Below, in pieces: positions 2,945 through 28,439 of a stretch of DNA of 29,605 nucleotides (position 1 is the first letter of the stretch; each line of letters begins with the position of its first letter). Source of the DNA: a virus. Its lineage: Duplodnaviria; Heunggongvirae; Uroviricota; Caudoviricetes. The DNA lies in IMG/VR virus record IMGVR_UViG_2547132415_000023; one strand, written 5' to 3'. The position numbers and the translations under genes are program-made. Below the pieces are notes generated by a model, which searched no databases, was not told where the DNA came from, and worked only from the letters and a program-made list of their open reading frames with translations.

Positions 2945-2976
2945 ATTTGATTATGCAAGTTAGAGGGAATTTAACC

Positions 2977-3486: not shown

Positions 3487-3493
3487 GGTGCGT

Positions 3494-3996: not shown

Positions 3997-4063
3997 TCCA
4001 AACAGAAATTTAATGGCGTAAACCCGCCGGGCATCTTATTGCCCGAAATCAGGAGAGTTAATT

Positions 4064-4291
4064 ATGCGTAATACCGAAATCCGTAGTTTTAACACTGATA
4101 GCGATGCGCTGGCCGTATTGCTGACCGATGCAAAAAAAGAAGAGCGTAAAGACCGCGCGCTCGCTGTTTCCATCCGCCTTGAGGCGCTGGCTATCCATAT
4201 TACCAGAGAGGGAATGAGCGGCACCGAAGCTGCCGAACTGCTGCGCCGTGAAGCAACCCGCTTTGAGAATGAATCACAGGAGCTGCACTAA
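4064..4291 (+). CDS. Hypothetical early protein
   Basis: 75 aa, RBS AGGAGAG upstream; its stop overlaps the next start (TAATG). Confidence 0.5.
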   Translation: MRNTEIRSFNTDSDALAVLLTDAKKEERKDRALAVSIRLEALAIHITREGMSGTEAAELLRREATRFENESQELH

Positions 4292-4512
4292 TGGCCGACG
4301 CAATGGATTTAGCACAACTGCGCGAGCAGGAAGACCGCGAACGCCACATCAGCAACGCACGCACCCGTATCGCTGCACCTTCCCGTTTTCTTTGCGAGGA
4401 ATGTGACGCACCAATCCCGGAAGCTCGCCGCATTGCGATTCCGGGCGTGGCTTTTTGCGTAACCTGCCAGCAAATCGCAGAGCTAAAAAACAAACACTAT
4501 CGGGGGGTATAA
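4291..4512 (+). CDS. TraR/DksA-family C4 zinc-finger protein
   Basis: 73 aa with CEECDAPIP....CVTCQ four-cysteine motif near the C-terminus; immediately upstream of gene A. Confidence 0.75.
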   Translation: MADAMDLAQLREQEDRERHISNARTRIAAPSRFLCEECDAPIPEARRIAIPGVAFCVTCQQIAELKNKHYRGV

Positions 4513-4513
4513 A

Positions 4514-6736
4514 TTGGCTGTTCAATTCGCTTATCCGTGGAACGTCCCACGGTCGGCAATCTCCAGCCCATACCTTACTTATGAGCAACAGCATCGCCGC
4601 GACCGTATGTTCGCGGCTTTGCTGCATGCAAAAAAGGTGCTTTCTCTCCAGCCCGACTGCGTGCGGTTAGATGTTTATCGCACTGCTGCGGTGCTGGAGC
4701 AAAATCAGGGTAGTCAACGAGCCAATGCATTTTTAATCAACTTCTGCAAAAAGGCATTGCCGCGTCTTGAAATGGTCGCAAAAAAATACGAATGCGCTGG
4801 TATCAACAGCAAGGTATCAACCGCTGTTTTTGGAAGTCATTTTGATACTCAGCAAATGCAATATCTGTCGTCACGCATGGTTAATATGGTCGCCCGATAT
4901 AACCGTCTCCCGGATATGTCGCGCGCTGATGTTGACCTGTTGGCCGCTGATATTGCTAATTTCATTCGTGGTGAACTTGCCAACATTAATGACCACGGAT
5001 TCGGCGAGCTTAAAACGCTGTACACCTGGTATATTCGTGCTGGCTTTATTTCCCTCCAATTTAACGTTATCCCACCACATTGGGAGCGGGTTGAAAAAAA
5101 ATATGTCGGTGCGGATGAAATCGCACCGGCTATCGCCAAAATGTTTAACGATGGGTGGTGGCGCGGTCGTTTGCGCCGTGTTGCAGCTACGTGGCGCGAA
5201 CACCTGCAAATTGCAGTCGGCAACGTCAGTAAGAAAAAAAACACTTACGCGAGTAAAAACTGCGTGACTGACTGGCGTGAACAAAAGCGCCGCACTCGTG
5301 AATTTCTCAAAGGTCTGGATCTCGAAGACGAAGACGGCAACCGTATCAGCCTGATTGAAAAATATGATGGCTCAGTTGCTAACCCTGCGATTCGCCGCTG
5401 TGAGCTCATGACCCGCATTCGTGGGTTTGAAAACATCTGTAATGAGCTCGGTTATGTCGGTGAGTTTTACACTCTAACCGCGCCGTCAAAATATCACGCC
5501 ACGACTAAAGCCGGTTACCGTAACAGCAAATGGAGCGGTGCCAGCCCGGCTGACACGCAAAACTATCTAACCGGTATCTGGGCGCGTATCCGTGCCAAAC
5601 TACATCGGGAAGATGTCCGTATTTTCGGTATTCGTGTCGCCGAGCCTCATCACGACGGCACTCCACACTGGCACATGCTGATGTTCATGCTGCCGGAAGA
5701 TGTTGAATATGTTCGCTCCATCGTCCGTAAATACGCATGGAAAGAAGACCGCCACGAACTGAAAAGCGATAAATCCAAAAAAGCACGTTTCCACGCCGAG
5801 TCCATTGACCCGGAGAAAGGCAGCGCAACCGGCTATGTTGCTAAATACATCTCAAAAAATATCGACGGTTATGCTCTCGATGGTGAAACCGATGATGAAA
5901 GCGGTGAGCTGCTGAAAGAGACAGCCCCCGCCGTTTCAGCATGGGCTGCGCGCTGGCACATCCGTCAGTTTCAGTTTATTGGTGGTGCGCCGGTGACGGT
6001 TTACCGTGAGTTGCGTCGCCTCGCTGATACCGAAACCGCGCACGGTCTGAGCGTTGAGTTTGCCGCCGTCCATGATGCCGCCGACGCTGGTGACTGGGCT
6101 GGTTATGTTAATGCTCAGGGTGGGCCGTTTGTCCGTCGCGATGATTTACAGGTGCGCACACTGTATGAACCGCGTACCGAGCTTAATCAGTACGGTGAGG
6201 AAACGGTATGTATTAAGGGGGTCTACGATTCCTCCATAGGTGCAGGAAGCCCGATTTTAACCCGGCTCACTCAGTGGAAGATTGTTCCGAAGCGTGCTGT
6301 TGATTTGGCCGTTGACCTTCAGGACGGCAAAGCCGTCCCTCGGAGTTCTGTCAATAACTGTACGGGAAGCGAAAGCGATCCACCGATACTGGATTTAACA
6401 AAACCACTGAGTCGGCGTGAAAGACGAGAATTGACCAACCGACTCAGGAAGCAAAAGCCAGCAGCACGGCGAAAATTCATCCACGGAACGGATGAGCAAA
6501 ACGCAGCTATAGCTAAAACTATCGACGAGATACATCTGACAACCGGCATTAATATCAGCCGGGGCGAAGCCCTGCACCTGATGGCCGGTGGTAAAAGTTG
6601 TTTTGATGGTAAATGGCTACGCGGAACGGCCAAAGGAGAAATATTTTCCGCAGCACCATCGCATGAGGCTAAAGCTCGGAAAATCCTTAATCGTGTTGCG
6701 GCGATGGCTGAAGCATCAAAACCAATACATGAGTAA
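4514..6736 (+). CDS. A: Replication initiation endonuclease gpA (rolling-circle initiator)
   Basis: 740 aa. HxH metal motif region EPHHDGTPHWHMLMF and catalytic-tyrosine region GYVAKYISKNIDGYA are typical of P2/186 A proteins. Position after the early genes fits. Confidence 0.9.
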   Translation: MAVQFAYPWNVPRSAISSPYLTYEQQHRRDRMFAALLHAKKVLSLQPDCVRLDVYRTAAVLEQNQGSQRANAFLINFCKKALPRLEMVAKKYECAGINSKVSTAVFGSHFDTQQMQYLSSRMVNMVARYNRLPDMSRADVDLLAADIANFIRGELANINDHGFGELKTLYTWYIRAGFISLQFNVIPPHWERVEKKYVGADEIAPAIAKMFNDGWWRGRLRRVAATWREHLQIAVGNVSKKKNTYASKNCVTDWREQKRRTREFLKGLDLEDEDGNRISLIEKYDGSVANPAIRRCELMTRIRGFENICNELGYVGEFYTLTAPSKYHATTKAGYRNSKWSGASPADTQNYLTGIWARIRAKLHREDVRIFGIRVAEPHHDGTPHWHMLMFMLPEDVEYVRSIVRKYAWKEDRHELKSDKSKKARFHAESIDPEKGSATGYVAKYISKNIDGYALDGETDDESGELLKETAPAVSAWAARWHIRQFQFIGGAPVTVYRELRRLADTETAHGLSVEFAAVHDAADAGDWAGYVNAQGGPFVRRDDLQVRTLYEPRTELNQYGEETVCIKGVYDSSIGAGSPILTRLTQWKIVPKRAVDLAVDLQDGKAVPRSSVNNCTGSESDPPILDLTKPLSRRERRELTNRLRKQKPAARRKFIHGTDEQNAAIAKTIDEIHLTTGINISRGEALHLMAGGKSCFDGKWLRGTAKGEIFSAAPSHEAKARKILNRVAAMAEASKPIHE

Positions 6737-6812
6737 TTCATATCCATATCATGCACATACAGCAATCGCTCTATTCGTTTTTTTTCTTCCCATCTTTTGC
6801 CAATACGTGATA

Positions 6813-6828
6813 CTGTATAAATATACAG
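6813..6828. promoter_or_regulatory. LexA (SOS) box overlapping the promoter of the downstream small ORF
   Basis: CTGTATAAATATACAG (CTGT-N8-ACAG), within TACTGTATAAATATACAGTA, a 19/20 match to the palindromic enterobacterial SOS-box consensus. 22 bp upstream of the ORF starting at 6850 (RBS GGGAGGG); possible -35 TTGCCA at 6797-6802. Confidence 0.75.
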
Positions 6829-6849
6829 TAACCCTATGGGAGGGATTTC

Positions 6850-7032
6850 ATGGTTGGCGAACATTTCAGCCGAACGCAGCAAAAGTGGGCTTGTGTGCAA
6901 TTTATTGCCGAGGTATCTCTGATTGCAAACTGCAAGCCATCAGACTTAAAGCTCGCGCTCACTCTCATTGCAGACCTAGCAAACAGCGAAAATAACGAAA
7001 CCGAAGATGATAATTTTTATAAGGCTGATTAG
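6850..7032 (+). CDS. SOS-controlled small protein, candidate Tum-like antirepressor N-terminal part
   Basis: 60 aa ORF directly behind the LexA box with a strong RBS. Ends at TAG 7030-7032, in frame with the following DinI-like ORF. Confidence 0.5.
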   Translation: MVGEHFSRTQQKWACVQFIAEVSLIANCKPSDLKLALTLIADLANSENNETEDDNFYKAD

Positions 7033-7035
7033 ATT

Positions 7036-7266
7036 ATGAGAATCAATATCACGTTGGATAAAGAGCAAAAATTAGGGCAACAGATCATTGATGCTTTTCA
7101 GAATGAAATAACACATCGAGTACAATGCGTTTTTCCTGCAACAAAAGTTAACGTTAAGAAAGGGTCAATGACTAGTGTAGAGGCTATCGGATTCGATAAA
7201 GAGACGGACAGAGAAACATTAGGCAGCATATTACAAGAGATTTGGGAAGACGATAGCTGGCGTTAA
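7036..7266 (+). CDS. DinI-family protein
   Basis: 76 aa: MRINITLDK...IIDAF..EITHRVQCVFP...ILQEIWEDDSW matches the DinI pattern (MRIEVTI...RRIQYAFP...ILQETWE..DDW). Same frame as the preceding ORF. Confidence 0.75.
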   Translation: MRINITLDKEQKLGQQIIDAFQNEITHRVQCVFPATKVNVKKGSMTSVEAIGFDKETDRETLGSILQEIWEDDSWR

Positions 7267-7308
7267 ACATAATAACCGTGCTGGCGCAAAAACTAGCTTT
7301 TTGCGTCG

Positions 7309-7349
7309 GCGGGGTTGAGTAACGAGCCCACGAGGCTTAAGTCCTGCCT
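7309..7349. repeat. Imperfect ~40-bp direct repeat, copy 1
   Basis: GGCGGGGTTGAGTAACGAGCCCACGAGGC... compared with GGCGGGGTTGAACAACGAGCTACGCGAGGC... at 7711; each follows a small hairpin placed just after a stop codon. Confidence 0.45.
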
Positions 7350-7465
7350 TTCAAAATTTCTCAATGTGCTATTAATGACACGCCCATGATTAATGAGGCA
7401 TGACCTGAGATGGTTTTATAGTGGCGTTTTGACGGCACTGATTAAAATTCATTGAGGGCGATAAT

Positions 7466-7693
7466 ATGCATCGACTATCAGGTGAAATTCCGCATCACAA
7501 AACCAAAAGCATCAAACTGATGGCCATCGTTCATCGTCTGCAGCAGATAATGGTCAATGAGAATTTGACACCCACAGAGCTGGTCGGGTGTGCCGAAATA
7601 GTCAGGGATAATTACGGCAAGCTGGATAGCATCAGCAGGCCGATACAATACGCCCCCCACCACGTCGACGATAGCAAACGTCGTCAGCGCTGA
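7466..7693 (+). CDS. Hypothetical small protein
   Basis: 75 aa ORF with GAGGGCG RBS, bracketed by the two ~40-bp direct repeats. No recognisable motif. Confidence 0.35.
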   Translation: MHRLSGEIPHHKTKSIKLMAIVHRLQQIMVNENLTPTELVGCAEIVRDNYGKLDSISRPIQYAPHHVDDSKRRQR

Positions 7694-7710
7694 AACTTGT
7701 TTTCAGGGCT

Positions 7711-7752
7711 GGCGGGGTTGAACAACGAGCTACGCGAGGCGTTAGCCCGCCC
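7711..7752. repeat. Imperfect ~40-bp direct repeat, copy 2
   Basis: See copy 1; about 80% identical over ~40 bp. Confidence 0.45.
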
Positions 7753-7956
7753 CGTAGAGACCGCTCCAAACCGTCGCCCTGAATGCCGGTTTTTTTATGT
7801 CATTTTCCCGCGATTTCCCCGTTTTTTAGCCGTGCATGCATCAGGTGCATGGTTTTGCATGCGTCAGTCTTGCCCCTTCTGTCCGTGCGCCGCCAGAGCT
7901 GGCGCGGATCCAGAGTTGTCATGCAACTGCATTAAAACCGACCCATAAAGCGGGCA

Positions 7957-7975
7957 GGCGTGGCGGGGAAAGCAT
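7957..7975 (+). other. cos site (19-nt cohesive-end sequence) of a P2/186-type phage
   Basis: GGCGTGGCGGGGAAAGCAT followed by TGCGCGC matches my recollection of the P2/186 cohesive ends (P2 GGCGAGGCGGGGAAAGCAC). Orientation agrees with a leftward portal gene to its right. Confidence 0.55.
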
Positions 7976-8239
7976 TGCGCGCAACGAACAAAAATGATTT
8001 TTGGAACTTTGATTGTTTTGGCAACGTTGTCTTAATGTAGTTGATGTCTAATGACTTATGTGCTGTCATAGCGGCAATAGCTTGTATGACTCTTATCGAT
8101 AGACTAATTAAATTATATAAATCAGATTACTAATGTGCTAAAGCGATTATAAGACTAACTCCATCATAAATTAAAGAATTAAGTTAGTCTGTTAAAATAG
8201 GTGAATTGAGAGAAAGTAATTTATAAATTAGGAGGAAAT

Positions 8240-9568
8240 ATGAATTGTAATGAACTTTTTTATTCCGCTGACAACCATGCATTAACGTTGCATGAAAGAA
8301 CAAAGTTATCTACGGTTGTTTTAGATAAAGGCATTACAAAAAAGAATGAATTAATAGAGTTTTTGAGAGAGGAATTAAAAGGGTCATTTGGTTGCGACGT
8401 TAAGTTTTGGTTGCAAGGATCATACAAAAGTCACACTCTCATTAAGCCTGTTGATAAGTTTTCTTCATATGATATTGATGTGGGCATTTATTTGTTCTTT
8501 GATGCAGAGGCTGAAGAGATTAATTCAAAGGATGTAAAGGATACGTTGAAAGATGCTTTACTATCTTACTGCGAAATAAATAACGAGGCGAAGATTCAGG
8601 AGTCAAAGAATGCGTGTGAGGGATTAATATTCTCCTCCTTTCTTACAATCGACACCCCTATCTATTATAAAACAACGACAAAAGTAAAACTTGCAACAGA
8701 TAAAGGTTGGAGTGATAGCGATCCAAAAGCTATACAAGACTGGTTAACAAATTCACATGCTACAAAACCAGCTAGAGCATTAATGAAACGGCTCGTCCGT
8801 TACTTTAAAGCATGGGTTAATGTACAGTGGCACGGTACTTCATTTAAAAAAATACCTTCGTTAGCGATAAATGTCCTAGTTGCTAATAACTTAAGTATCC
8901 ATGATAGAGAGGACGATTGTTTTATATATACAGTGTTAGCTATTTGTGAGCAATTAGAGCGCTCAATGGAAGTAGAGAATCCTCTTAATGGCACCAATTT
9001 GCTTGCGATGCCTGATGATGCTTTAACTTTCGCGCATCAAAAGCTTCAACAATTGAAGAAAGTTTGTATAGATTGTATAGATGCCAACGAAAATGAAAGG
9101 AATATAAATTTTTCTAATTTATTCCAACATTATTTCCCTCAGGTAACGATCGTATCAAACGGAGGGGGAACTGGTCTGCCAGCGATTACTACAACCCCAG
9201 AAATATCTGTCTGTCGTTATGATAAACATGGTTCCCACATTGAAACTGTCTTAACGGATCAGTTAACGGTTGATAAAGGTGACTCATTAACATTCACCAT
9301 TTGTAATCCTGGGGCTTTTAGCCCTTATGCTCAGACGAAATGGACGGTTAGAAATGTTGGTAGCCAAGCTAATGATGCCAATGATATAGGGCACATTGAA
9401 TATGGAAAACCCAACGAAAGTCATAAACGGGGAACGTCTTATACTGGCTCGCATACGATGGAATGTATGGTTACTTACAATGGCGCTGTTTTAGGTTTAA
9501 AAGTTATTCAAGTTATAGTACGGCCTGCAATTTCTGTTAAAAGACCTATTAGAAAGTTTTGGAGATGA
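8240..9568 (+). CDS. cGAS/DncV-like (SMODS-type) nucleotidyltransferase with C-terminal extension; candidate signal synthase of a defence module
   Basis: 442 aa, strong RBS AGGAGG at 8231-8236. Pol-beta NTase signature G60-S61 ... D78-I-D80 (QGSYKSHTLIKPVDKFSSYDIDVGIYLF), with further acidic residues downstream. About 140 C-terminal residues are Gly/Thr/Ser-rich and beta-like with no recognised match. Low-GC gene. Confidence 0.7.
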   Translation: MNCNELFYSADNHALTLHERTKLSTVVLDKGITKKNELIEFLREELKGSFGCDVKFWLQGSYKSHTLIKPVDKFSSYDIDVGIYLFFDAEAEEINSKDVKDTLKDALLSYCEINNEAKIQESKNACEGLIFSSFLTIDTPIYYKTTTKVKLATDKGWSDSDPKAIQDWLTNSHATKPARALMKRLVRYFKAWVNVQWHGTSFKKIPSLAINVLVANNLSIHDREDDCFIYTVLAICEQLERSMEVENPLNGTNLLAMPDDALTFAHQKLQQLKKVCIDCIDANENERNINFSNLFQHYFPQVTIVSNGGGTGLPAITTTPEISVCRYDKHGSHIETVLTDQLTVDKGDSLTFTICNPGAFSPYAQTKWTVRNVGSQANDANDIGHIEYGKPNESHKRGTSYTGSHTMECMVTYNGAVLGLKVIQVIVRPAISVKRPIRKFWR

Positions 9569-9572
9569 TAGT

Positions 9573-10151
9573 ATGTGGGAACTAATGCCACCAAAAGCTA
9601 AATACGGCTTATCAATTGGAATTTCTATTCTTATCTTCCTTATGTATAAGGAATGTTTTAAGTTTCCTTTTGCTAGATCTATCTCCTTTACGATCAGTAC
9701 CATTACCATCCTTGCTTGGTTATTTGGAAAGTATTTATGGAAATATATTTATTTTGGTATCTTTAAACGGAATTTTTGCCCAGATTTTAATGGCACGTGG
9801 ACGGCTACGATAAAATCAAATTTTAGCCCGAATACTCAGGTTGAATTTCCATTAAAGATAGAGGCTAATTTCTTCTCTGTTAAGATGACAGGCAATACCA
9901 CTATCGGAAGAACCTACACAAATCTATGTAAAATTGTTCGTGCAGAAGATGATAGTTTCGAGTTGGTATATATGTTTAGAGTTATGAATGACTCTCCATC
10001 TGATTCTGATGCTGTTTTCTATGAAGGGGCGGCGAGGTTACGTGTAGTTGACATTGACTCTATGCAAATGATAGGGGTCTTTTGGACAAATCGATGTTGG
10101 CAAAATAATTTAAACACTGCTGGTTCTATAACTTTAACGAAACAGAGTTAG
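9573..10151 (+). CDS. Small membrane effector candidate: two N-terminal TM helices plus beta-rich C-terminal domain (Cap15-like)
   Basis: 192 aa, starts 4 nt after the NTase stop with its own GGAG RBS. Hydrophobic segments LSIGISILIFLMY (~13-25) and ISFTISTITILAWLF (~37-51); the C-terminal ~130 aa shows alternating hydrophobic patterns suggesting beta strands. Confidence 0.65.
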   Translation: MWELMPPKAKYGLSIGISILIFLMYKECFKFPFARSISFTISTITILAWLFGKYLWKYIYFGIFKRNFCPDFNGTWTATIKSNFSPNTQVEFPLKIEANFFSVKMTGNTTIGRTYTNLCKIVRAEDDSFELVYMFRVMNDSPSDSDAVFYEGAARLRVVDIDSMQMIGVFWTNRCWQNNLNTAGSITLTKQS

Positions 10152-10207
10152 CTTTCATTAATTTCAATCCTACTTTTCTTGGGTCAGGATTAACAGACTC
10201 TGTCAGA

Positions 10208-10238
10208 GTTGGTACGTACCATTTAGTTGGTACGTACC
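10208..10238. repeat. Tandem pair of 10-bp perfect palindromes (GTTGGTACGTACC x2)
   Basis: GTTGGTACGTACC at 10208-10220 and 10226-10238, each containing GGTACGTACC; adjacent CTCTG-T-CAGAG inverted repeat at ~10198-10208. In the convergent gap between the 2TM gene and portal gene ends. Confidence 0.5.
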
Positions 10239-10245
10239 CTATCAT

Positions 10246-11262
10246 CTAATCCTCGTCAATACTGTAATCCTTGAAGCGGACCACTTCCATTCCCAGCCAG
10301 TCATTAATTTCTTTAAATCGCTCCTGCAACGGTGTCAGCTCATTACGTACGAACACCTTTGCCACCTTCTCAACATCACCGAGCGACGCGATGTTTTCAG
10401 GCTTGCCCCCCATTAGCTGGAACGGCACGCGGTGTGCATCGAGCAGGTCAGCGGCGCTCACCTTTTTAATGTTAAAGAAATCATCTTTCGTCGCGACCTC
10501 ACTCAAAGGCACGATCTTGATGCCGTCGGGTTTACCGTTTGGCGCATAGAAAAACAGGTTTTTAAAATTCCCTAGTCCTTTTGAGTCACGCATGGCCGAG
10601 CGCAGCGCATCAACATCCGTGCTGCTTTGTGCCGCATCGGTCACATACATGATGTAACCCGCATGCGCCCCGTTCTGGTAATACTTGCGACGAAAAAGCG
10701 TGGCGGATTCATTCAGCCACGCGGAATTGAGTGCGCTCAGGTATTCCGGCATGCCATAAAGCTCCTGATTGATGTCAGGCTCCAGCAGGTGAAACACCGA
10801 GCCGGGTGCGAACTGGTGCGGGTTGTTAAAACTCGAAATGTACCAGTAAACTCCATCCTCAACGCCACGACGGGTATATTTAGCAGGTGATGTTTCCAGT
10901 TTTATAAGCTGGCCGGTGACGCTCATGCGCTTCTCAAGATAGCCGTTGGCAAAGACCAGATAATCCAGTACGAGGCGGCTGAAATCCTGACGTGACAGCA
11001 GCGGGTGCGGGATGTAGGTACTCGCCAGAATGTTACGTTTCACGTAAATCGGCGAGCTGTGATGAACGGCGGCGCGCAGGCTTTTTGCCAGACCAGAGAA
11101 GTTGACCGGCGGCTCGTACCACTTACCGTTATTGATGCACTCGACATAATCGAGGATATCGCGACGATCCAGAACGGCAGAGGGCTCGCCAAAGGTGAAC
11201 GCCTCCATTTTTTGCGGTGCGCTAACGGTCGTTGTGGTGGGTATCTTCAGTTGCTTTTTCAT
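10246..11262 (-). CDS. Q: Portal protein gpQ
   Basis: 338 aa, size and position (leftward, next to cos, preceding P) match P2 Q. Confidence 0.9.
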   Translation of the reverse strand: MKKQLKIPTTTTVSAPQKMEAFTFGEPSAVLDRRDILDYVECINNGKWYEPPVNFSGLAKSLRAAVHHSSPIYVKRNILASTYIPHPLLSRQDFSRLVLDYLVFANGYLEKRMSVTGQLIKLETSPAKYTRRGVEDGVYWYISSFNNPHQFAPGSVFHLLEPDINQELYGMPEYLSALNSAWLNESATLFRRKYYQNGAHAGYIMYVTDAAQSSTDVDALRSAMRDSKGLGNFKNLFFYAPNGKPDGIKIVPLSEVATKDDFFNIKKVSAADLLDAHRVPFQLMGGKPENIASLGDVEKVAKVFVRNELTPLQERFKEINDWLGMEVVRFKDYSIDED

Positions 11263-13198: not shown

Positions 13199-14053
13199 AT
13201 GGCAAAAAAAGTCTCAAAATTCTTTCGCATCGGCGTCGAGGGTGACACCTGCGACGGCCGCATTATCAGCGGCAACGATATTCAGGAAATGGCCGAATCG
13301 TTTGACCCTCGCGTCTACGGTTGCCGCATTAACCTTGAGCATATTCGCGGTCTCTTTCCTGATGGCGACTTCAAACGCTTAGGCGATGTGGTTGAACTGA
13401 AAGCTGAAATAATTGACGACGATTCTGCGCTTAACGGCAAATGGGCGTTGTTCGCCAGAATCACCCCAACCGACGACCTGATTGCGATGAATAAAAAATT
13501 GCAGAAGGTCTACACCTCAATGGAAATTCAGCCGAATTTTGCCAATACCGGCAAATGCTACCTCGTCGGCCTTGCTGTCACCGATGACCCGGCGAGCCTC
13601 GGCACTGAATACCTCGAATTCTGCCGCAACGCGAAGCACAACCCTCTGCAGCGCTTTAAGGCCAACCCTGAAAACGTCTTTTCCGCTGCCACGCTGGCCG
13701 AACTGGAATTTGAAGACGTTCCCGATACGGTGCTAAACAGCCTGGCAGATAAGGTGAAAGCCATTTTCAGCCGTAAGCAGGTCAGCGACGATGCGCGCCT
13801 GAATGATGTGCATGAAGCGGTGACCACCGTCAGCGAGCATGTGCAGACCAACCTCACTGCGCAGGATCAGCGTCTTTCCGCTATGGAAGCCGCGCTTACC
13901 ACCTTTAAACAGGAACTGACCGGCAAGATTGAAGAAACCAGCCAGGCATTTTCCGCCCTGAAAGCCACCCTCGACAAAACCGAAAGTTTCAGCCAGCCGC
14001 GACGCACGAAAGCCAGCGGCGGTGGTGGCGATGAGCTGCTGACCGACTGCTGA
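13199..14053 (+). CDS. O: Capsid scaffolding protein gpO
   Basis: 284 aa, first gene of the rightward late operon divergent from P; size identical to P2 O. Confidence 0.85.
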   Translation: MAKKVSKFFRIGVEGDTCDGRIISGNDIQEMAESFDPRVYGCRINLEHIRGLFPDGDFKRLGDVVELKAEIIDDDSALNGKWALFARITPTDDLIAMNKKLQKVYTSMEIQPNFANTGKCYLVGLAVTDDPASLGTEYLEFCRNAKHNPLQRFKANPENVFSAATLAELEFEDVPDTVLNSLADKVKAIFSRKQVSDDARLNDVHEAVTTVSEHVQTNLTAQDQRLSAMEAALTTFKQELTGKIEETSQAFSALKATLDKTESFSQPRRTKASGGGGDELLTDC

Positions 14054-20022: not shown

Positions 20023-20931
20023 ATGGCAACCGTTGACCTGAGTCAGTTACCCGTTCCCGATGTGGTTGAGGAACTGGACTATGAAACTATCCTTGCGGAA
20101 CGCATTGCGACGCTGATTTCGCTCTATCCCGAAGACCAGCAGGAGGCCATTGCCCGGACGCTCACACTTGAGTCAGAGCCGATTGTTAAGCTGCTGCAGG
20201 AAAACGCCTACCGTGAAGTTATCTGGCGTCAGCGGGTGAACGAAGCCGCGCAGGCGGTGACGCTGGCCTACTCCGCCGGTAACGACCTCGACGTCGTAGC
20301 CGGGAACAATAATACCGAACGCCTGACCATCACCCCGGCGGATGATACCACCATCCCGCCGACACCTGCCGTTATGGAATCTGATACCGACCTGCGACTG
20401 CGCACGCAACAGGCGTTTGAGGGATTGAGCGTGGCGGGTCCGGTCGGTGCATATGAGTATCACGGCCGCAGCGCCGACGGGCGGGTCGCTGACGTTTCGG
20501 TCGCCAGCCCGTCGCCAGCCTGCGTGACGATTACCGTGCTATCGCGTGAAGGGGACGGCACTGCCAGCCCTGAGCTACTGGCGATTGTTGATAAAGCGCT
20601 GAACGCCGAAGATGTGCGCCCGGTAGCTGACCGGGTGACCGTCCAGTCAGCCGAGATTGTGCCGTACCAGATTGACGCGACGATCTACGTTTACCCCGGC
20701 CCCGAATCTGAACCCATCAGGCAGGCGTCAGAGCAGAAGTTGCAGAGCTACATCAGCGCGCAGCACCGCCTCGGGCGTGATATCCGTCTGTCAGCCATTT
20801 ATGCGGCGCTGCATGTTGAGGGGGTGCAGCGTGTCGAGCTGACATCACCGCAGGCCGACATAGTGCTGAGTAAGTCGCAGGCGTCGAACTGTACCGAGTA
20901 CCAGATAACTATCGGGGGCTCGGATGAATGA
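20023..20931 (+). CDS. J: Baseplate protein gpJ
   Basis: 302 aa, same size as P2 J. Confidence 0.85.
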   Translation: MATVDLSQLPVPDVVEELDYETILAERIATLISLYPEDQQEAIARTLTLESEPIVKLLQENAYREVIWRQRVNEAAQAVTLAYSAGNDLDVVAGNNNTERLTITPADDTTIPPTPAVMESDTDLRLRTQQAFEGLSVAGPVGAYEYHGRSADGRVADVSVASPSPACVTITVLSREGDGTASPELLAIVDKALNAEDVRPVADRVTVQSAEIVPYQIDATIYVYPGPESEPIRQASEQKLQSYISAQHRLGRDIRLSAIYAALHVEGVQRVELTSPQADIVLSKSQASNCTEYQITIGGSDE

Positions 20932-21532
20932 CCGGCTATTACCCGTTGGCTCGTCGCCGCTGGAGGTCGCCGCCGCCGCTGCGTTCTCTGAGATTCAGCG
21001 CGTGCCGGTACCGCTGCGCACCCTGTGGAACTGGCGCACCTGCCCGGTAAAGCTGCTGCCGTATCTGGCGTGGGCGCTGTCGGTCGACAGGTGGGATGAG
21101 AAATGGCCGGAGGCGACAAAGCGCAGCGTCTGCGCGTCCTCGTTTTTCGTCCATCAGCACAAAGGCACCATCAGCGCATTGCGTCGAGTCGTCGAGCCGC
21201 TCGGCTTTCTGATTGAGGTGCGCGAGTGGTGGCAACTCGACGAGGAGCCAGGCACATTCCGCCTCGTTGTTGGCGTCCTCGACAGCGGCATCACTGACGA
21301 AATGTATCAAGAGCTTGAGCGCCTGATTGAAGACGCCAAACCGGCAAGTCGCCACCTGACCGGGCTGGCTATCAGTCTGAGCTCGACCGGCGAACTGTAT
21401 GTCGGCGCGGGATGCTATCACGGCGACGCGCTGACTGTTTACCCCTACACCCCCGAGGAGATTGTCGTCGGCGGTGAATATTACCCGGCCTCGGCCATCC
21501 ATTTGATTGATAACCTGAGAGTGAACGCATGA
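20924..21532 (+). CDS. I: Baseplate/tail protein gpI
   Basis: 202 aa, overlaps J and H ends; P2 synteny. Confidence 0.8.
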   Translation: MNDRLLPVGSSPLEVAAAAAFSEIQRVPVPLRTLWNWRTCPVKLLPYLAWALSVDRWDEKWPEATKRSVCASSFFVHQHKGTISALRRVVEPLGFLIEVREWWQLDEEPGTFRLVVGVLDSGITDEMYQELERLIEDAKPASRHLTGLAISLSSTGELYVGAGCYHGDALTVYPYTPEEIVVGGEYYPASAIHLIDNLRVNA

Positions 21533-22512
21533 CCGCAAAATATTTTGCCATTCTGACCAATCAGGGCGCGGCGCGGCTGGCGAACGCGGCGGCACTCGGT
21601 ACCAAACTCAACCTGACGCAGATGGCCGTCGGTGATGCGAATGGTACGTTGCCGACCCCTGACCCGGCGCAGACGAAGCTCATTAACCAGAAACGCATCG
21701 CGCCGCTGAACCTGCTGACCGTTGACCCGGCCAATACCAGTCAGATTATCGCGGAACAGATTATTCCCGAGAATGAAGGTGGTTTCTGGATCCGCGAGAT
21801 TGGTCTCTATGACGATGATGGTATTCTGATTGCCGTGGCGAACTGTCCGGAGACCTACAAGCCACAACTGCAGGAGGGAAGCGGTCGCACGCAGACCATT
21901 CGCATGATTCTGATTGTGTCGAGCACATCGGCAATTACCCTGAAAATCGACCCGGCAGTCGTGCTGGCAACGCGCCAGTATGTCGACGATAAGGTTATCG
22001 AGGTGAAAGCCTATGCTGATAGTCTGCTGGCCGCGCACCTCGCCGCTGCTGACCCGCATTCGCAGTACCTCAAAACGGCGGATATTGATAAATATATTCC
22101 GGTCGGCTTTCCGCTGCCGTGGCCGCAGGCAACTCCGCCGAGTGGCTGGCTGAAATGCAACGGTGCGGCTTTTGACAAGGCGAAATATCCAAAGCTGGCC
22201 GTCGCTTATCCATCAGGTAATCTGCCTGATTTGCGTGCTGAATTTATCCGTGGGTGGGACGATGGTCGAGGGGTCGATGCGGGCCGAATTTTGCTAAGTC
22301 AGCAAGGAGCCACAGCATTTACTGAATATCATGGGGACGGAGCAACAGGGCAACCACCTCGAAATTATTACACCAATCAGGACTTTGTCAGCTATGCCGG
22401 TACTGGGTTTACTGCTTTTGGTGGAACTGATGTTCGAAAAGACGGAATCACCAATTATATTGGTGTTCGCCCGCGCAACATTGCATTTAACTACATCGTG
22501 AGGGCGGCATAA
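21529..22512 (+). CDS. H: Tail fibre protein gpH (short form)
   Basis: 327 aa with the conserved tail-fibre N-terminus MTAKYFAILTNQGAARLANA. Much shorter than P2 H (~670 aa); the last ~80 codons have lower GC. Confidence 0.8.
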   Translation: MTAKYFAILTNQGAARLANAAALGTKLNLTQMAVGDANGTLPTPDPAQTKLINQKRIAPLNLLTVDPANTSQIIAEQIIPENEGGFWIREIGLYDDDGILIAVANCPETYKPQLQEGSGRTQTIRMILIVSSTSAITLKIDPAVVLATRQYVDDKVIEVKAYADSLLAAHLAAADPHSQYLKTADIDKYIPVGFPLPWPQATPPSGWLKCNGAAFDKAKYPKLAVAYPSGNLPDLRAEFIRGWDDGRGVDAGRILLSQQGATAFTEYHGDGATGQPPRNYYTNQDFVSYAGTGFTAFGGTDVRKDGITNYIGVRPRNIAFNYIVRAA

Positions 22513-23108
22513 TGGCAAAAGCGACACTAAACAAAAACGGCATTGCCACAAAAGCTGGTGATATGACCGTCTATAACTTTGATGGCGAGACGCGCGAATA
22601 TTTATCGGCATCCGTGGAGTTTCTCGCCGTCGGCGTAGGTATTCCTGCCAACTCCTGCACCGATGCTCCCGTCGACGCGAAAGATGGTTTTGCTGTGTGC
22701 CGCGCGACCAGTCTTGATGGGTGGGAATATGTTATCGACCATCGGGGCGAGACCGTGTATGACACTGAATCCGGCCAACCTGTCGAGATAAACGGGCTCG
22801 GTGATTACCCTGATAATATGACCACCATCAAACCGCTGACGACTTATGACCGCTGGAACGGTAGCGAATGGGTTACGGATGCGGATGCACAAAAAGGCGG
22901 TCAGGTTGCGGCAGCGCAACAGAAAAAAGCCTCGCTACTGGCCGAAGCGCAAAGCACCATTAGCCTGTGGCAGACCGAGCTGCAACTCGGCATCATCAGC
23001 GACGATGACAAGGCCAACCTGATTGCATGGATGAAATACATTCAGGCGCTGAACGCGGTCGACACATCAACAGCACCGGATATCGAGTGGCCGGTAAAAC
23101 CGGAATAA
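22512..23108 (+). CDS. G: Tail fibre assembly chaperone gpG
   Basis: 198 aa, starts at the TAATG overlap with H; lower-GC 5' part and a conserved-looking C-terminus. Confidence 0.8.
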   Translation: MAKATLNKNGIATKAGDMTVYNFDGETREYLSASVEFLAVGVGIPANSCTDAPVDAKDGFAVCRATSLDGWEYVIDHRGETVYDTESGQPVEINGLGDYPDNMTTIKPLTTYDRWNGSEWVTDADAQKGGQVAAAQQKKASLLAEAQSTISLWQTELQLGIISDDDKANLIAWMKYIQALNAVDTSTAPDIEWPVKPE

Positions 23109-23113
23109 CGCAA

Positions 23114-23137
23114 GGCGGGCTGATGCCCGTCTTTTTT
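23114..23137 (+). terminator. Rho-independent terminator after the tail-fibre operon
   Basis: GGCGGGC-TGAT-GCCCGTC stem-loop followed by TTTTTT, immediately after the G stop. Confidence 0.7.
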
Positions 23138-23239
23138 ATGATTTGTTTATGTGCCATCCCCTACCCATCGCCGATAAATAGCCCCTCAAAAGACCAGCCA
23201 GGACAATAACACTTGCCCACTAACCACGGAGTTAACCGG

Positions 23240-24418
23240 ATGAGTGATTTTCACCACGGCGTGCAGGTGCTTGAGATTAACGACGGCACCCGCGTCATTT
23301 CCACTGTTGCAACCGCAATCGTCGGCATGGTCTGTACAGCCAGCGATGCGGATGCGGCAACCTTTCCCCTCAACGAGCCGGTACTGATTACCAATGTGCA
23401 AAGCGCCATTGCGAAAGCCGGTAAAAAAGGCACTCTGGCCGCGTCCCTGCAGGCCATCGCCGACCAGTCAAAACCTGTCACAGTTGTCGTGCGTGTTGCC
23501 GAAGGTACCGGAGAAGACGCCGAAGCGCAGACCATTTCCAATATCATCGGCGGCACGGATGAGAACGGTAAATATACCGGCATCAAGGCGCTGTTGACTG
23601 CCGAAGCAGTCACCGGCGTTAAGCCGCGCATTCTCGGCGTGCCGGGTCTCGATACCAAAGAGGTCGCAGTCGCACTTGCTTCGGTCTGTATCAGCCTGCG
23701 CGCGTTTGGTTATGTCAGCGCATGGGGTTGTAAAACCATTTCCGAGGCGATGGCCTATCGCGAGAATTTCAGCCAGCGCGAGCTGATGGTCATCTGGCCT
23801 GATTTCCTTGCATGGGATACCACCACAAACGCCACCGCACCGGCATACGCAACTGCGCGCGCACTCGGCCTGCGTGCCTATATCGACCAGACCGTCGGCT
23901 GGCACAAAACCCTGTCTAACGTCGGCGTGCAGGGTGTTACCGGCATCAGTGCGTCAGTGTTTTGGGATTTGCAGGCATCCGGCACCGATGCTGATCTGCT
24001 CAACGAGGCCGGGGTCACGACACTGGTGCGTAAGGATGGCTTCCGCTTTTGGGGTAACCGCACCTGCTCTGATGACCCGCTTTTCCTGTTTGAGAACTAC
24101 ACCCGCACCGCGCAGGTGCTGGCCGACACGATGGCCGAGGCGCACATGTGGGCGGTCGATAAGCCCATCACCGCATCACTTATCCGTGACATTGTCGACG
24201 GCATTAACGCCAAATTCCGCGAGCTGAAATCAAACGGCTACATCGTGGACGGTGAATGCTGGTTCGACGAGGAATCGAACGATAAGGAAACCCTCAAGGC
24301 CGGGAAACTGTATATCGACTACGACTATACACCGGTTCCACCACTGGAAAGCCTAACCCTGCGCCAGCGTATCACCGATAAATATCTGGTGGATCTGGCC
24401 GAATCGGTCAACAGCTAA
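23240..24418 (+). CDS. FI: Tail sheath protein gpFI
   Basis: Start trimmed to ATG 23240 (MSDFHHGVQVLEINDG...), 392 aa, close to P2 FI (~396 aa). Confidence 0.9.
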   Translation: MSDFHHGVQVLEINDGTRVISTVATAIVGMVCTASDADAATFPLNEPVLITNVQSAIAKAGKKGTLAASLQAIADQSKPVTVVVRVAEGTGEDAEAQTISNIIGGTDENGKYTGIKALLTAEAVTGVKPRILGVPGLDTKEVAVALASVCISLRAFGYVSAWGCKTISEAMAYRENFSQRELMVIWPDFLAWDTTTNATAPAYATARALGLRAYIDQTVGWHKTLSNVGVQGVTGISASVFWDLQASGTDADLLNEAGVTTLVRKDGFRFWGNRTCSDDPLFLFENYTRTAQVLADTMAEAHMWAVDKPITASLIRDIVDGINAKFRELKSNGYIVDGECWFDEESNDKETLKAGKLYIDYDYTPVPPLESLTLRQRITDKYLVDLAESVNS

Positions 24419-25503: not shown

Positions 25504-27940
25504 TAACCTGAGACTTGAGGTTTTGCTGAAAGCGGTCGACCAGGCGACCCGACCGCTTAAATCCATCCAGACCGCGAGTAAAACCCTGTCGGGCGATATT
25601 CGCGACACACAAAAAGGGCTGCGTGACCTGAACGGGCAGGCCGCGAAAATCGACGGCTTTCGCAAAACCAGCGCTCAACTGGCCGTAACCGGCCAGTCGC
25701 TGGAGAAGGCAAAGCGCGAGGCTGAAGCGCTTGCCACGCAATTCAAAAATACTGAGCGCCCGACGCGAGCGCAGGCACAGGTGCTCGAATCCGCAAAACG
25801 TGCCGCCGAGGGGCTGCAGGTTAAATACAACAGCCTCACCGAGTCGGTTAAACGCCAGCAACGCGAGCTGGGTGCCGCCGGTATCAATACCCGCAATCTG
25901 GCAAACGATGAGCGGGGGCTTAAAACACGTATCAGCGAGACGACGGCGCAGCTCAACCGGCAGCGTGAAGCATTGGCGAAGGTCAGCGCACAGCAGGCGC
26001 ACCTAAACCGAGTGAAAGAGCGATATAAATCGGGTAAGGAGCTTGCCGGTAACATGGCCGCTGCAGGTGCTGCCGGGGTCGGTATTGCGACAGCGGGAAC
26101 GATGGCCGGGGTTAAATTGCTGATGCCCGGTTATGACTTTGCGCAAAAAAACTCCGAGCTGCAGGCTGTGCTCGGGGTCGATAAGCAGTCGCCAGAAATG
26201 CAGGCGTTACGCAAACAGGCGCGCCAGCTCGGTGACAATACAGCCGCTTCTGCTGATGATGCAGCCAGTGCGCAGATTATCATTGCAAAAGGTGGTGGTG
26301 ATGCGGCGGCTATAGCGGCCATGACACCTGTGACTCTCAACCTGTCGCTTGCAAACAAAAAAACAATGGAGGAAAACGCGCAACTGTTGATGGGGACAAA
26401 AGCCGCCTTTCAACTTTCTAATGACGCGGCTGCGCATATCGGTGATGTTCTTTCAACCACGATGAACAAAACCACCGCTGATTTTCAGGGACTAAGTGAC
26501 TCATTAAGTTACCTTGCCCCTGTTGCGAAAAATGCTGGGGTGAGTCTTGAACAGGCGGCGGCGATTACCGGCACACTTCATGATAATAACATCAGGGGGT
26601 CAATGGCTGGGACTGGCGGCGCTGCTGTTATAACGAGACTACAGGCACCCACAGGCAAAGCATACGATGCTCTCAAAGAGCTGGGAGTTAAAACCTCAGA
26701 CAGCAAAGGCAATACGCGCCCGCTATTTACCATCCTGAAAGAAATGCAGGCCAGTTTTAAGCGCAACAATCTTGGTACCTCACAAAAGGCCGAGTACGTG
26801 AAAACGATATTCGGCGAGGAGGCTATGAAGTCTGCAAGTGTCCTTATGACGGCAGCGGCAAGCGGAAAACTCGATAAGCTAACTGCCACGATAAAGGATT
26901 CAGACGGTAAAACAGAGGAGCTGGTCAAGGTTATGCAGGATAACCTCGGCGGCGACTTCAAGGAGTTCCAGTCAGCATATGAGGCGGTCGGCACTGACCT
27001 CTATGACCAGCAAGATAGCTCATTGCGTCAGCTAACTCAGACAGCAACACGGTATGTGCTAAAGCTTGATGACTGGATCAAAGACAACAAGGAGTTAGCG
27101 GAAACTATCGGCATCATCGCCGGTGGTGCGCTGGCGCTGATTGGTATCATCGGCGGCATTGGTCTCGTTGCGTGGCCGGTTGTCATGGGGATTAATGCAA
27201 TTATCGCCGCTGCTGGCGTGCTGGGTACGGTCTTTACTGTCGTCGGTAGTGCCATTGCGACAGCGCTCGGTGCGATTACCTGGCCGATAGTGGCCGTCGG
27301 TGCGGCGATTGTGGCGGGGGCGCTACTCATCCGTAAATATTGGGAGCCCATCAGCGCATTTTTCTCGGGAGTGATTGAAGGCATCATGAGTGCCTTTGCC
27401 CCAGTCGGGGAAATGTTAGCTCCACTGACTCCCATTTTTGATGGTCTCGGCGAGAAACTGCGCGGCGTCTGGCAGTGGTTTAAAGACCTGATAGCACCGG
27501 TTAAGGCCACGCAGGAAACGCTTGATAGCTGCAAAAATGTCGGCGTCATATTTGGTCAGGCACTGGCCTCTGCCTTGATGGCTCCGCTCAATGTTTTTAA
27601 CAAGCTGCGCAGCGGTGTCGACTGGCTTCTCGAAAAGCTCGGCATCATCAACAAAGAGTCGGACAGCCTCGACCAGACCGCCGCCAAAACCAATGCCGCC
27701 ACACAGGGTAATTCCTACATCCCGGCAACCAGCACATATGGCGGCTATCAGGCTTATCAGCCAGTTACCGCACCGGCGGGGCGCTCTTACATTGACCAGA
27801 GCAAAAGCGAATACAACATCAATCTGCCGGGAGGTGTTGCGCCGGGGCATCAGCTTGACAGACAACTACGCGACACGCTCGAACAGATTGAGCGCGATAA
27901 ACGCGCCCGCCAGCGTGCCAACATGACCCACGACTATTGA
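25496..27940 (+). CDS. T: Tail tape measure protein gpT
   Basis: 814 aa, coiled-coil-rich N-terminal half, Gly/Ala-rich hydrophobic segment (IAGGALALIGIIGGIGLVAW...); size and position match P2 T. Confidence 0.9.
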   Translation: MSNNLRLEVLLKAVDQATRPLKSIQTASKTLSGDIRDTQKGLRDLNGQAAKIDGFRKTSAQLAVTGQSLEKAKREAEALATQFKNTERPTRAQAQVLESAKRAAEGLQVKYNSLTESVKRQQRELGAAGINTRNLANDERGLKTRISETTAQLNRQREALAKVSAQQAHLNRVKERYKSGKELAGNMAAAGAAGVGIATAGTMAGVKLLMPGYDFAQKNSELQAVLGVDKQSPEMQALRKQARQLGDNTAASADDAASAQIIIAKGGGDAAAIAAMTPVTLNLSLANKKTMEENAQLLMGTKAAFQLSNDAAAHIGDVLSTTMNKTTADFQGLSDSLSYLAPVAKNAGVSLEQAAAITGTLHDNNIRGSMAGTGGAAVITRLQAPTGKAYDALKELGVKTSDSKGNTRPLFTILKEMQASFKRNNLGTSQKAEYVKTIFGEEAMKSASVLMTAAASGKLDKLTATIKDSDGKTEELVKVMQDNLGGDFKEFQSAYEAVGTDLYDQQDSSLRQLTQTATRYVLKLDDWIKDNKELAETIGIIAGGALALIGIIGGIGLVAWPVVMGINAIIAAAGVLGTVFTVVGSAIATALGAITWPIVAVGAAIVAGALLIRKYWEPISAFFSGVIEGIMSAFAPVGEMLAPLTPIFDGLGEKLRGVWQWFKDLIAPVKATQETLDSCKNVGVIFGQALASALMAPLNVFNKLRSGVDWLLEKLGIINKESDSLDQTAAKTNAATQGNSYIPATSTYGGYQAYQPVTAPAGRSYIDQSKSEYNINLPGGVAPGHQLDRQLRDTLEQIERDKRARQRANMTHDY

Positions 27941-27953: not shown

Positions 27954-28439
27954 ATGATGCTTGCTCTCGGAATGTTTGTGTTTGAACTTCGCACCCTGCC
28001 TTACCAGTCGATGCAGCATTCGAAAGATTATCGCTGGGTGTCCAATGACCGGGTGGGTAAACCACCTGCCTATCAGTTTCTTGGCGAGGGGGAAACCTCT
28101 ATACAGCTTGCTGGTACGCTATACCCCGCTATCACTGGCGGTTGGATCTCACTTAAGGCTGTAGAGGTGATGGCCAATGAAGGCAGAGCGTGGCCGTTGA
28201 TAGAGGGAACCGGAAATATCCTCGGGATGTATATCGTCGATAAAGTATCGACTACACGCACCGAGTTTTTCAGTGATGGTGCGGCCAGAAAGATTGATTT
28301 CACGCTTTCGCTAAAACGGGTTGATGAATCGCTGACAGAGATGTTTGGTGACCTGAATAAACAGGCCAGTGAGCTTCTCGGCTCTGCCGGTAATTTGACA
28401 GATAAACTGCAGGGTATGCCCGGAGGTTTCACTGCATGA
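27954..28439 (+). CDS. U: Tail protein gpU
   Basis: 161 aa directly after T; P2 synteny. Confidence 0.85.
   Translation: MMLALGMFVFELRTLPYQSMQHSKDYRWVSNDRVGKPPAYQFLGEGETSIQLAGTLYPAITGGWISLKAVEVMANEGRAWPLIEGTGNILGMYIVDKVSTTRTEFFSDGAARKIDFTLSLKRVDESLTEMFGDLNKQASELLGSAGNLTDKLQGMPGGFTA

Follow-up and report, generated by a model that had tools for sequence, protein, structure and literature searches.

The tail fiber locus described here very probably consists of a complete, compact fiber gene together with the gene for its cognate chaperone, with a tip that is mosaic at two nested levels and that carries inserts that are GC3 poor throughout the family. The locus lies in a P2/186-family (Peduoviridae) prophage of Escherichia coli, represented by a window of 29,605 nucleotides, which is the whole stretch of DNA analyzed. 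The two genes, H and Tfa, are an intact, ordinary, and already catalogued kind of gene pair, and H is a complete, compact tail fiber gene and is not truncated. Its GC-poor stretch is a swappable, probably receptor-binding segment, and the gene is therefore ordinary rather than broken.

The open reading frames and their Pfam matches give the gene order V-W-J-I-H-G-FI-FII, in agreement with the RefSeq annotation of E. coli D3, and all coordinates given here are on the plus strand. A gpI-type baseplate or tail protein is encoded at 20924 to 21532 (PF09684, Tail_P2_I; E 4.7e-51), overlaps the start of H, and has a D3 counterpart annotated as 'phage tail protein I'. H is a complete gene of 327 aa at 21529 to 22512 with matches to PF12571 and PF07484, and is followed in the P2 G position by the gene for a 198-aa tail fiber assembly chaperone, Tfa, at 22512 to 23108 (PF02413, E 3.4e-39; phrog_105, 'tail fiber assembly', E 1.8e-90). 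H is thus located between the gpI and Tfa genes and upstream of the sheath and tube genes, which is the position of P2 gpH, and the order V-W-J-I-H-G is the same around gpH/gpG of P2 and K/Tfa of phage 186. Tfa overlaps H by one base (TAATG), suggesting that their translation is coupled. The spacing from Tfa to the sheath gene is 105 nt and includes a terminator-like hairpin and T-run (23112 to 23143) with a nine-pair stem, which closes the V-W-J-I-H-G operon and is placed as are the annotated terminators 3' of the P2 and 186 Tfa genes.

The fiber has three parts, the last of which, a T4 gp37/gp12-type collar domain, is split by an insert. The first 150 residues (21529 to 21978) constitute a P2-H-type N-terminal domain that matches PF12571 over its full length (1 to 150 of 150; 211 bits, E 9.5e-63), is >90% conserved over 120 family representatives, and presumably attaches to the baseplate. 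A short linker or neck (aa 151 to 185; 21979 to 22083) is defined by its conservation in the family, with homology to P2 and 186 stopping at about aa 158; it corresponds in position to the long shaft of P2 H, and its predicted structure is of low confidence. Residues 186 to 257 (22084 to 22299) are the N-terminal part of a collar domain and form a conserved framework that matches PF07484 at aa 193 to 240 and aligns to the T4 gp37 tip (PDB 2xgf). Family alignment then delimits a hypervariable insert (aa 258 to 313; 22300 to 22467) at the center of a dip in GC content, and the protein ends with a conserved strand, RPRNIAFNYIVRAA (aa 314 to 327; 22468 to 22509), which is near-invariant across the family, aligns to the C-terminal end of T4 gp37, KNIAFNYIVRLA, and closes the collar domain.

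The relationship of the collar to T4 fiber proteins is evident in several searches. The PF07484 profile scores 52.3 bits against H (cut-off 24), H as a single sequence matches 2xgf with an E value of 2.9e-18, and the family profile does so at 4.6e-27, spanning both the N-terminal part and the last strand and also matching gp12. Both collar segments align to gp37 (aa 179 to 252 and aa 315 to 327), and from these alignments H is predicted to have the split topology in which the N-terminal part of the collar is followed by a distal excursion and then a closing strand. The collar and its split topology are common to H, the gp37 tip, and the gp12 C-terminal domain (1ocy, 5iv5), as is a T4-type final strand returning to the collar with the motif NIAFNYIVR, and the insert is topologically equivalent to the needle and head of gp37 and to the head of gp12. 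An AlphaFold2 model of the C-terminal fragment (aa 176 to 327, from an alignment of 81 sequences) has pLDDT values of 85 to 96 in the collar core, 88 in the last strand, and below 60 in the insert, and its top Foldseek matches are gp37 and gp12 (probability 1.0, TM 0.31 to 0.42, with large rmsd), a fold match that lends weak support to the collar homology. The full-length monomer model (59-sequence alignment) has a mean pLDDT of 43 and was therefore kept out of the fold search. The short tail fiber of phiTE (PDB 9cuy) matches the entire collar by sequence, but its paper modeled residues 3 to 92 alone and it therefore provides no collar structure.

We note, however, that H departs from the T4 proteins in several respects. 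The excursion is 56 aa long, compared with ∼90 aligned needle and head residues in the gp37 chain, and the collar is mounted on a P2-type N-terminal domain. The insert (aa 258 to 313) contains a single histidine (in YHGDG) and has none of the HxH metal-binding motifs of the gp37 and gp12 kind, so that the fine structure of the tip may differ; HxH is found in several other inserts of the family. H is also served by a chaperone of the Mu/P2 Tfa type, unlike the T4 fibers, whose chaperones are gp57A and gp38.

The assignment of Tfa is supported by its score against the Caudo_TAP profile (PF02413; 134 bits, cut-off 22), and the exact protein is present on 76 contigs. Its C-terminal domain (aa 131 to 198; 22902 to 23105) is conserved and putatively mediates oligomerization; it aligns to residues 111 to 175 of Mu Tfa (U; 5yvq_B) with an E value of 4e-07, and is 31% identical to P2 G and 33% to 186 Tfa over those ∼68 residues only. 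The remainder (aa 1 to 130; 22512 to 22901) is a tip-specific domain that probably binds the fiber, and is homologous to none of its counterparts in P2 (G), 186 (Tfa), and Mu (U). This arrangement corresponds to the modular Tfa model, in which a variable N-terminal domain is matched to the tip and the gene lies directly 3' of the fiber gene, as it does here (PMC9608196). Mu Tfa is reported to remain on the virion. By sequence, Tfa is predicted to be the chaperone for folding and trimerization of H. Its N-terminal domain covaries with the fiber tip, through the collar framework: at 65 loci, identity over the N-terminal 120 aa tracks that of the framework (r 0.78) and not that of the insert (r 0.23), and these 120 residues are 78 to 86% identical at loci whose inserts are ∼20% identical to that of H.

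These features suggest how the fiber may be organized. The P2-H-type domain (aa 1 to 150) would plug into the baseplate and the linker would replace the ∼500-aa shaft and tip of P2 H, placing the T4 gp37/gp12-type collar at the distal end. The chain would exit the collar after aa 257, make its 56-aa excursion, and return as the last strand (aa 314 to 327), and the excursion may contact the receptor distally and fix adsorption specificity by analogy with gp37 and gp12. Tfa probably uses its tip-specific domain to bind the end of the collar, and its conserved C-terminal domain probably brings the three chains into register.

Variation in the family is concentrated in the insert. Among 120 representatives, identity to the reference is 7 to 21% in columns 261 to 310 and >90% in the flanks, with conservation above 90% at aa 1 to 250 and aa 321 to 327. 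These representatives carry 67 insert types (the family thus has at least 67 alleles), which range from 52 to 115 aa and are mutually unalignable. The insert allele of H is rare, being present in 4 of 5,426 complete E. coli genomes and in no phage records, and the same insert type is found in a 460-aa fiber of strain 97.3, in an invertible segment of strain S12, where it lies in the silent cassette, and in Yersinia phage YerA41 (P0014). The earlier literature that we found on P2-like phages covers long P2-type fibers only and does not describe the present collar-insert family, and the BASEL collection paper has nothing on Peduoviridae collar fibers. In the long fibers of P88 and pro147, hypervariable regions are reported at aa 576 to 695 and aa 716 to 746 (PMC5285337), which is an analogous principle with a different tip type.

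A more general reading, which we advance tentatively, is that the collar acts as a universal socket accepting at least 67 unrelated inserts of 52 to 115 aa between near-invariant flanks, that essentially one insert-agnostic Tfa serves them all, and that they come from a pool, poor in GC3, to which lytic phages (YerA41; T-even-like gp37 and gp12 tips) and silent invertible cassettes also belong. If so, the 327-aa fiber would offer a minimal, naturally occurring plug-and-play scaffold with which P2-like phages and tailocins could be retargeted. The data suggest that a single chaperone may tolerate many inserts.

The GC content of the locus falls locally and modestly. Across the late region (10.5 to 29.6 kb; mean GC 0.563, sd 0.035 in 400-bp windows), the lowest 400-bp window is 22181 to 22580, at 0.475. 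The 196 bp from 22272 to 22467 have a GC content of 0.464, a value equaled or undercut by 1.2% of late-region windows of that size. In 120-bp windows the deep dip spans ∼22320 to 22620, and therefore takes in ∼60 codons at the end of H but, at the start of G, only ∼35 (about one-sixth of that gene), with GC again at 0.56 by 22560 to 22679. The preliminary description had the GC content falling from ∼22250 through the first third of gpG; the fall is real (0.475 versus 0.563), but it is narrower than that, and G overall has a uniform GC content of ∼0.52 to 0.55 with no step at one-third of its length.

It had also been proposed that this low-GC block is an exchanged module of receptor-binding tip and cognate chaperone N-terminus, and the answer depends on the relatives compared. 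Against P2 and 186 the module stands, as only aa 1 to 158 of H and about aa 131 to 198 of G are homologous. The H N-terminus is 56% identical to aa 27 to 159 of P2 H and 52% to aa 1 to 159 of 186 K; beyond aa 158 there is no significant alignment to either protein, both of which have long shafts and unrelated tips (669 aa in P2 H, 462 aa in 186 K), and the N-terminal ∼130 aa of the chaperones are unrelated also. Judged from these alignments, H is a P2-H N-terminal domain fused to a different tip and not a full-length ortholog of P2 H. Among near relatives, however, the breakpoints enclose only 22272/22299 to 22467, inside H: no DNA homology to phage EtG or to SF-468 is found over this interval, and it restarts at 22468. 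Swapping within the family is confined to the insert, while relative to P2 and 186 the replacement extends to the tip and, jointly with it, to the N-terminal two-thirds of Tfa. At the outer level of the mosaic, the collar tip and Tfa would be one of several tip-chaperone modules carried on near-identical backbones, and, one level further in, only the insert would be exchanged between highly conserved collar flanks, presumably by recombination at those flanks.

It is improbable that a single recent transfer brought in one low-GC block made up of the tip and the first third of the chaperone. The joint loss of homology to P2 and 186 past aa ∼158 of H and over aa 1 to 130 of G is consistent with such an event, as are the mildly low GC of 22006 to 22901 (0.523, versus 0.56 to 0.60 in the flanks) and phage 613R3, whose DNA is 99% identical up to 22020 and has no homology until 23164, the entire interval being replaced. 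But the dip and the breakpoints with the closest relatives lie within H (22272 to 22467), GC has recovered by ∼22600, and G shows no compositional step. The tip-specific part of Tfa is moreover about two-thirds of the protein and not one-third, and its strong conservation beside unrelated inserts, correlated with the collar framework, is at odds with a tip-chaperone block of this kind.

The dip is modest (∼2.5 sd) and not unique, since equal GC is reached at three other late-region sites (∼13330, 26320, and 28210), and this is what favors viewing it as chance or as the amino acid composition of a Gly/Thr/Asn/Tyr-rich loop, with no evolutionary signal. We regard this as very unlikely. GC3 in H declines from 0.67 (aa 1 to 180) to 0.50 (aa 181 to 240) and 0.39 (aa 241 to 327), reaching 0.30 at codons 261 to 300, and the insert has a GC3 of ∼0.29 at an overall GC of 0.45 to 0.46; GC1 and GC2 over the same stretch are unchanged or higher. 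A fall restricted to GC3 leads us to reject amino acid composition as its source. The dip also coincides with the hypervariable segment defined by alignment, and the deficit recurs beside unrelated inserts: in related loci, which number 76 and are not phylogenetically independent, insert GC is below that of the N-terminal domain in 70 and insert GC3 is lower in 74, with a mean difference of −0.225. A GC3-poor insert is thus a family-wide signature of a circulating insert pool.

The preliminary description rightly put H at about half the size of P2 H, that protein being 669 aa, and its limits for the reading frame were right, but it called the fiber truncated, which the database contradicts. 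It is highly improbable that H is a defective remnant of a P2-H-like long fiber, produced by deletion, premature stop, or assembly error and giving no functional fiber. The greater lengths of the P2 and 186 proteins, and the occurrence of the same collar tip on longer fibers (460 aa in strain 97.3, and a 1,497-nt match, ∼499 codons, in a P2-like phage of E. coli O157:H43 T22), are compatible with shortening. The H reading frame nevertheless runs to RPRNIAFNYIVRAA, the C-terminus conserved in the family, completing the collar domain, and keeps its TAATG overlap with Tfa. The identical protein is encoded in the complete D3 genome (WP_004017449.1, 'phage tail-collar fiber domain-containing protein'; 98.8% DNA identity to 20900 to 23400) and on 67 contigs, and each of the best 120 cluster representatives is 324 to 379 aa long and has both domains, so that at least 120 share the architecture. 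The infectious Erwinia phage EtG is built alike, with a 327-aa ortholog; of 30 E. tracheiphila isolates, it infects 8 (PMC5824000). We reject truncation or an assembly error on the recurrence of the protein in databases and on its conserved C-terminus.

That tip variability is made in situ, by a DNA-invertase switch of the Mu G, P1 C, or e14 kind or a diversity-generating retroelement (DGR), is scarcely credible: invertases, inverted crossover sites, and opposed tip/Tfa cassettes are seen in relatives (613R3 carries an inverted Tfa together with an invertase, and E. coli S12 combines a recombinase with inverted repeats of 248 nt (94%) and carries the insert type of the window in a silent cassette) and not at the H/G locus, where the G-to-sheath interval of only 105 nt has no invertase ORF, a search of the window found no inverted repeats flanking the variable region, no gix-like crossover site, and no second copy of 22272 to 22467 to act as template repeat, and the inserts are unequal in length and unalignable, unlike the products of A-targeted DGR mutagenesis. 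A Mu-like inversion crossover site is annotated in 186 K, and H is without one.

The complete fiber with an exchangeable tip corrects a concern for annotation, in that the adsorption apparatus of this prophage is intact and its GC anomaly is what receptor-binding-tip exchange would be expected to leave. It also supplies swap boundaries for host range engineering of P2-like phages and R-type tailocins, at aa 257/258 and aa 313/314 (22299/22300 and 22467/22468). Hypervariable distal tips with conserved flanks, and tip-chaperone modules, are already known in T-even, Mu, P1, and P2-like phages, and the locus raises no new biological question. The EtG counterpart (Eganvirus EtG, gp21) has the same length, domain order, and neighbors as H and is 81% identical overall, with 79% DNA identity in the Tfa region; it differs in having an unrelated insert at about aa 249 to 313 and in that two additional genes, on the minus strand, separate Tfa from the sheath gene.

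The tail fibre gene H (21529-22512, + strand, 327 aa) and the tail fibre assembly chaperone gene G, or Tfa (22512-23108, + strand, 198 aa), lie among late genes ordered V-W-J-I-H-G-FI-FII-E-T, with one base of the junction TAATG common to the H stop and the G start. A terminator-like hairpin (23112-23133) closes the operon at the position of the annotated terminators following the Tfa genes of P2 and 186. The window, which also has an integrase (172-1221, - strand) and GPA replication protein (4514-6736, + strand), is a P2/186-family prophage; 5426 of 5426 complete E. coli genomes match some part of window 1-11000, and an E. coli D3 prophage is 98.8% identical to it over the tail region. H has an N-terminal PF12571 domain (aa 1-150, E 9.5e-63) and a PF07484 phage tail collar domain (aa 193-240, E 5.7e-14), and G belongs to the Caudo_TAP tail fibre assembly proteins (PF02413, E 3.4e-39).

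As the preliminary description stated, H is about half the length of P2 H (327 aa versus 669 aa; 186 K is 462 aa), but, contrary to that description, it is not truncated. An identical protein is annotated in E. coli D3 as a 'phage tail-collar fiber domain-containing protein' (WP_004017449.1), 67 E. coli contigs carry the exact sequence, and one near-identical member of the cluster comes from Salmonella. A search of 5.8 billion proteins yielded 8000 scored relatives, and each of the top 120 cluster representatives is 324-379 aa long and carries both PF12571 and PF07484. Erwinia phage EtG codes for a 327-aa H orthologue in the same gene order as the window, and was isolated as a phage infecting 8 of 30 E. 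tracheiphila isolates (PMC5824000). The H C-terminus, RPRNIAFNYIVRAA, is near-invariant among family members. H and G are an ordinary, intact, and already catalogued gene pair.

Aligned as a single sequence to solved structures, H aa 179-252 matches the collar part of gp37, the T4 long-tail-fibre tip (2xgf, E 2.9e-18), and the last 13 residues of H align as a separate segment to the last residues of gp37; with the family profile, the 2xgf match improves to E 4.6e-27, and T4 gp12 and the phiTE short tail fibre are detected as well. In gp37 and gp12 (2xgf and 1ocy), the chain exits the collar, forms the distal receptor-binding needle or head, and re-enters to complete the collar. This split topology is also visible in H, as a collar N-part (aa 186-257), an excursion (aa 258-313, window 22300-22467), and a closing strand (aa 314-327). 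An AlphaFold2 monomer of aa 176-327 has pLDDT values of 85-96 in the collar core, 88 in the last strand, and below 60 in the excursion, and the best Foldseek PDB matches of this model are gp37 and gp12 (probability 1.0, with low TM of 0.31-0.42), weakly corroborating the collar homology. The full-length H monomer model (pLDDT 43) was unusable. Some family inserts have HxH motifs, as do gp37 and gp12, and none was found in the window's H insert.

The excursion coincides with a hypervariable insert. Among the 120 family representatives, identity to the window's H exceeds 90% at aa 1-250 and 321-327 and is 7-21% at aa 261-310, and the inserts (60-115 aa as extracted with short flanks) form 67 types at 60% identity. 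The same boundaries are seen in DNA: SF-468 is 92% identical to the window up to 22298 and 91% from 22468 on, and for EtG the values are 93% up to 22271 and 79% from 22468 on, with no DNA match to the window between these points in either. The window's insert allele is matched identically in one of the 5426 complete E. coli genomes and by related sequences in three others, and the 50,697 phage records contain no match. It is thus uncommon, and one of many alleles in the family.

The fall in GC content noted from the sequence is real, with the lowest 400-bp window of the late-gene region (10.5-29.6 kb; mean 0.563, sd 0.035) at 22181-22580 (0.475). The 196 bp at 22272-22467 have a GC content of 0.464, equaled or undercut by only 1.2% of 196-bp windows, and the interval unmatched in SF-468 and EtG is at 0.45-0.46. 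The dip is carried by third codon positions, with GC3 declining from 0.67 (aa 1-180) to 0.50 (aa 181-240) and 0.39 (aa 241-327; 0.30 in codons 261-300), and no fall in GC1 or GC2 along H. Contrary to the preliminary description, it does not extend through the first third of G; in 120-bp windows the deep dip spans ~22320-22620 and GC is again 0.56 by 22560-22679, so that it enters G by only ~35 codons, and the rest of G is uniform at 0.52-0.55. Low insert GC is not peculiar to this element: among 76 related loci drawn from phage records, E. coli genomes, and IMG/VR, with many unrelated inserts among them, the insert is below the N-terminal domain in GC in 70 and in GC3 in 74 (mean GC3 difference -0.225), a comparison that is descriptive since the loci are non-independent. 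This persistent GC3 deficit suggests movement of the inserts through a phage pool that is broader and, on average, richer in AT than that of the backbone, with turnover too rapid for their composition to adjust to the backbone's. GC of 0.464 or less in 196-bp windows also occurs at three further late-region sites (starts ~13326-13373, ~26311-26359, and ~28208-28222), the second of these within the tape-measure gene.

Only aa ~131-198 of G are similar to Mu U (5yvq, E 4e-07), P2 G (31%), and 186 Tfa (33%), so that the fibre tip and the chaperone N-terminal part are jointly replaced relative to P2 and 186, the exchange covering the fibre beyond aa ~158 and about the first two thirds of the chaperone. 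This pattern fits the published picture of a modular Tfa, whose variable N-domain attaches to the distal fibre and whose conserved C-domain mediates oligomerisation (PMC9608196, which cites the Mu Tfa structure). Inside the collar family, however, the chaperone is not exchanged along with the insert: where inserts share only ~20% identity with that of the window, the first 120 aa of G still show 78-86% identity, and over 65 loci G N-terminal identity correlates with that of the collar framework (r 0.78) rather than the insert (r 0.23). Horizontal exchange of the receptor-binding end as a general cause and, in outline, the joint replacement relative to P2 and 186 survive from the preliminary description, but the dip does not mark a tip-plus-chaperone block; the unit is an intragenic hypervariable insert, and the chaperone tracks the collar framework.

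Mosaicism operates at two nested levels, an outer one of the tip and Tfa region and an inner one of insert swapping. Escherichia phage vB_EcoM-613R3 is 99% identical in DNA to the window up to 22020 and again from 23164, and in place of window 22020-23164 it has (at 3957-5524 of its locus) a different 320-aa tip accompanied by a DNA invertase and a pair of opposed Tfa genes. Whereas this phage, whose baseplate genes are 99% identical, thus carries an invertible host-range switch, the tip at the same position in the window is fixed, because no invertase, flanking inverted repeats, gix-like site, or template-like repeat was found in the window. The window-type insert occurs in other settings, including a 460-aa fibre of E. 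coli strain 97.3 (74% DNA identity), more distantly Yersinia phage YerA41 (P0014), and many stand-alone 140-260-aa collar ORFs beginning ...KNLGLGEGSALPVG. In E. coli S12, an invertible tail-fibre segment (2121-5381 of the locus) adjoins a recombinase and has inverted repeats of 248 nt (94%, in the collar N-part) and 304 nt (78%); its active fibre (328 aa) differs in the N-terminal domain and bears a collar insert of the HxH type, and its silent, promoter-distal cassette (154 aa) carries a window-type insert. Such an arrangement probably accounts for the many 140-260-aa collar-only ORFs.

We infer a mechanism in which the H N-domain would dock on the baseplate, with a short neck and collar giving a stubby trimeric fibre whose aa 258-313 excursion may form the distal receptor-contacting surface. 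Tfa, probably translationally coupled to H, would bind the collar end and align the three C-termini, such that trimerisation begins distally. Recombination between homologous collar flanks, both of them conserved, could then generate new specificities.

Several features near the gene pair and elsewhere in the prophage are also of note. Between its Tfa and sheath genes, EtG carries two minus-strand genes (4649-5409 of its locus), coding for a hypothetical protein and a putative membrane protein, and fun(Z) of P2 occupies the same gap. The corresponding window segment (23109-23212) is only ~105 nt and contains the terminator-like hairpin, and this cargo (moron) site is therefore empty. The mechanical ORF list begins the sheath gene (23213-24418) at a TTG, giving 401 aa, and RefSeq starts it 27 nt downstream in the near-identical D3 prophage (window 23240, 392 aa); the 401-aa version is probably extended too far. 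A low-GC island (0.34-0.39) just upstream of the portal gene (10246-11262, - strand) codes for a two-gene, CBASS-like type I defence system (8240-10151, + strand), consisting of a 442-aa CD-NTase/oligonucleotide cyclase (PADLOC PDLC00824, E 1e-159; Pfam DncV-like NTase and AGS_C) and a 192-aa 2TM/Cap15-like effector (PDLC00682, E 1e-29).
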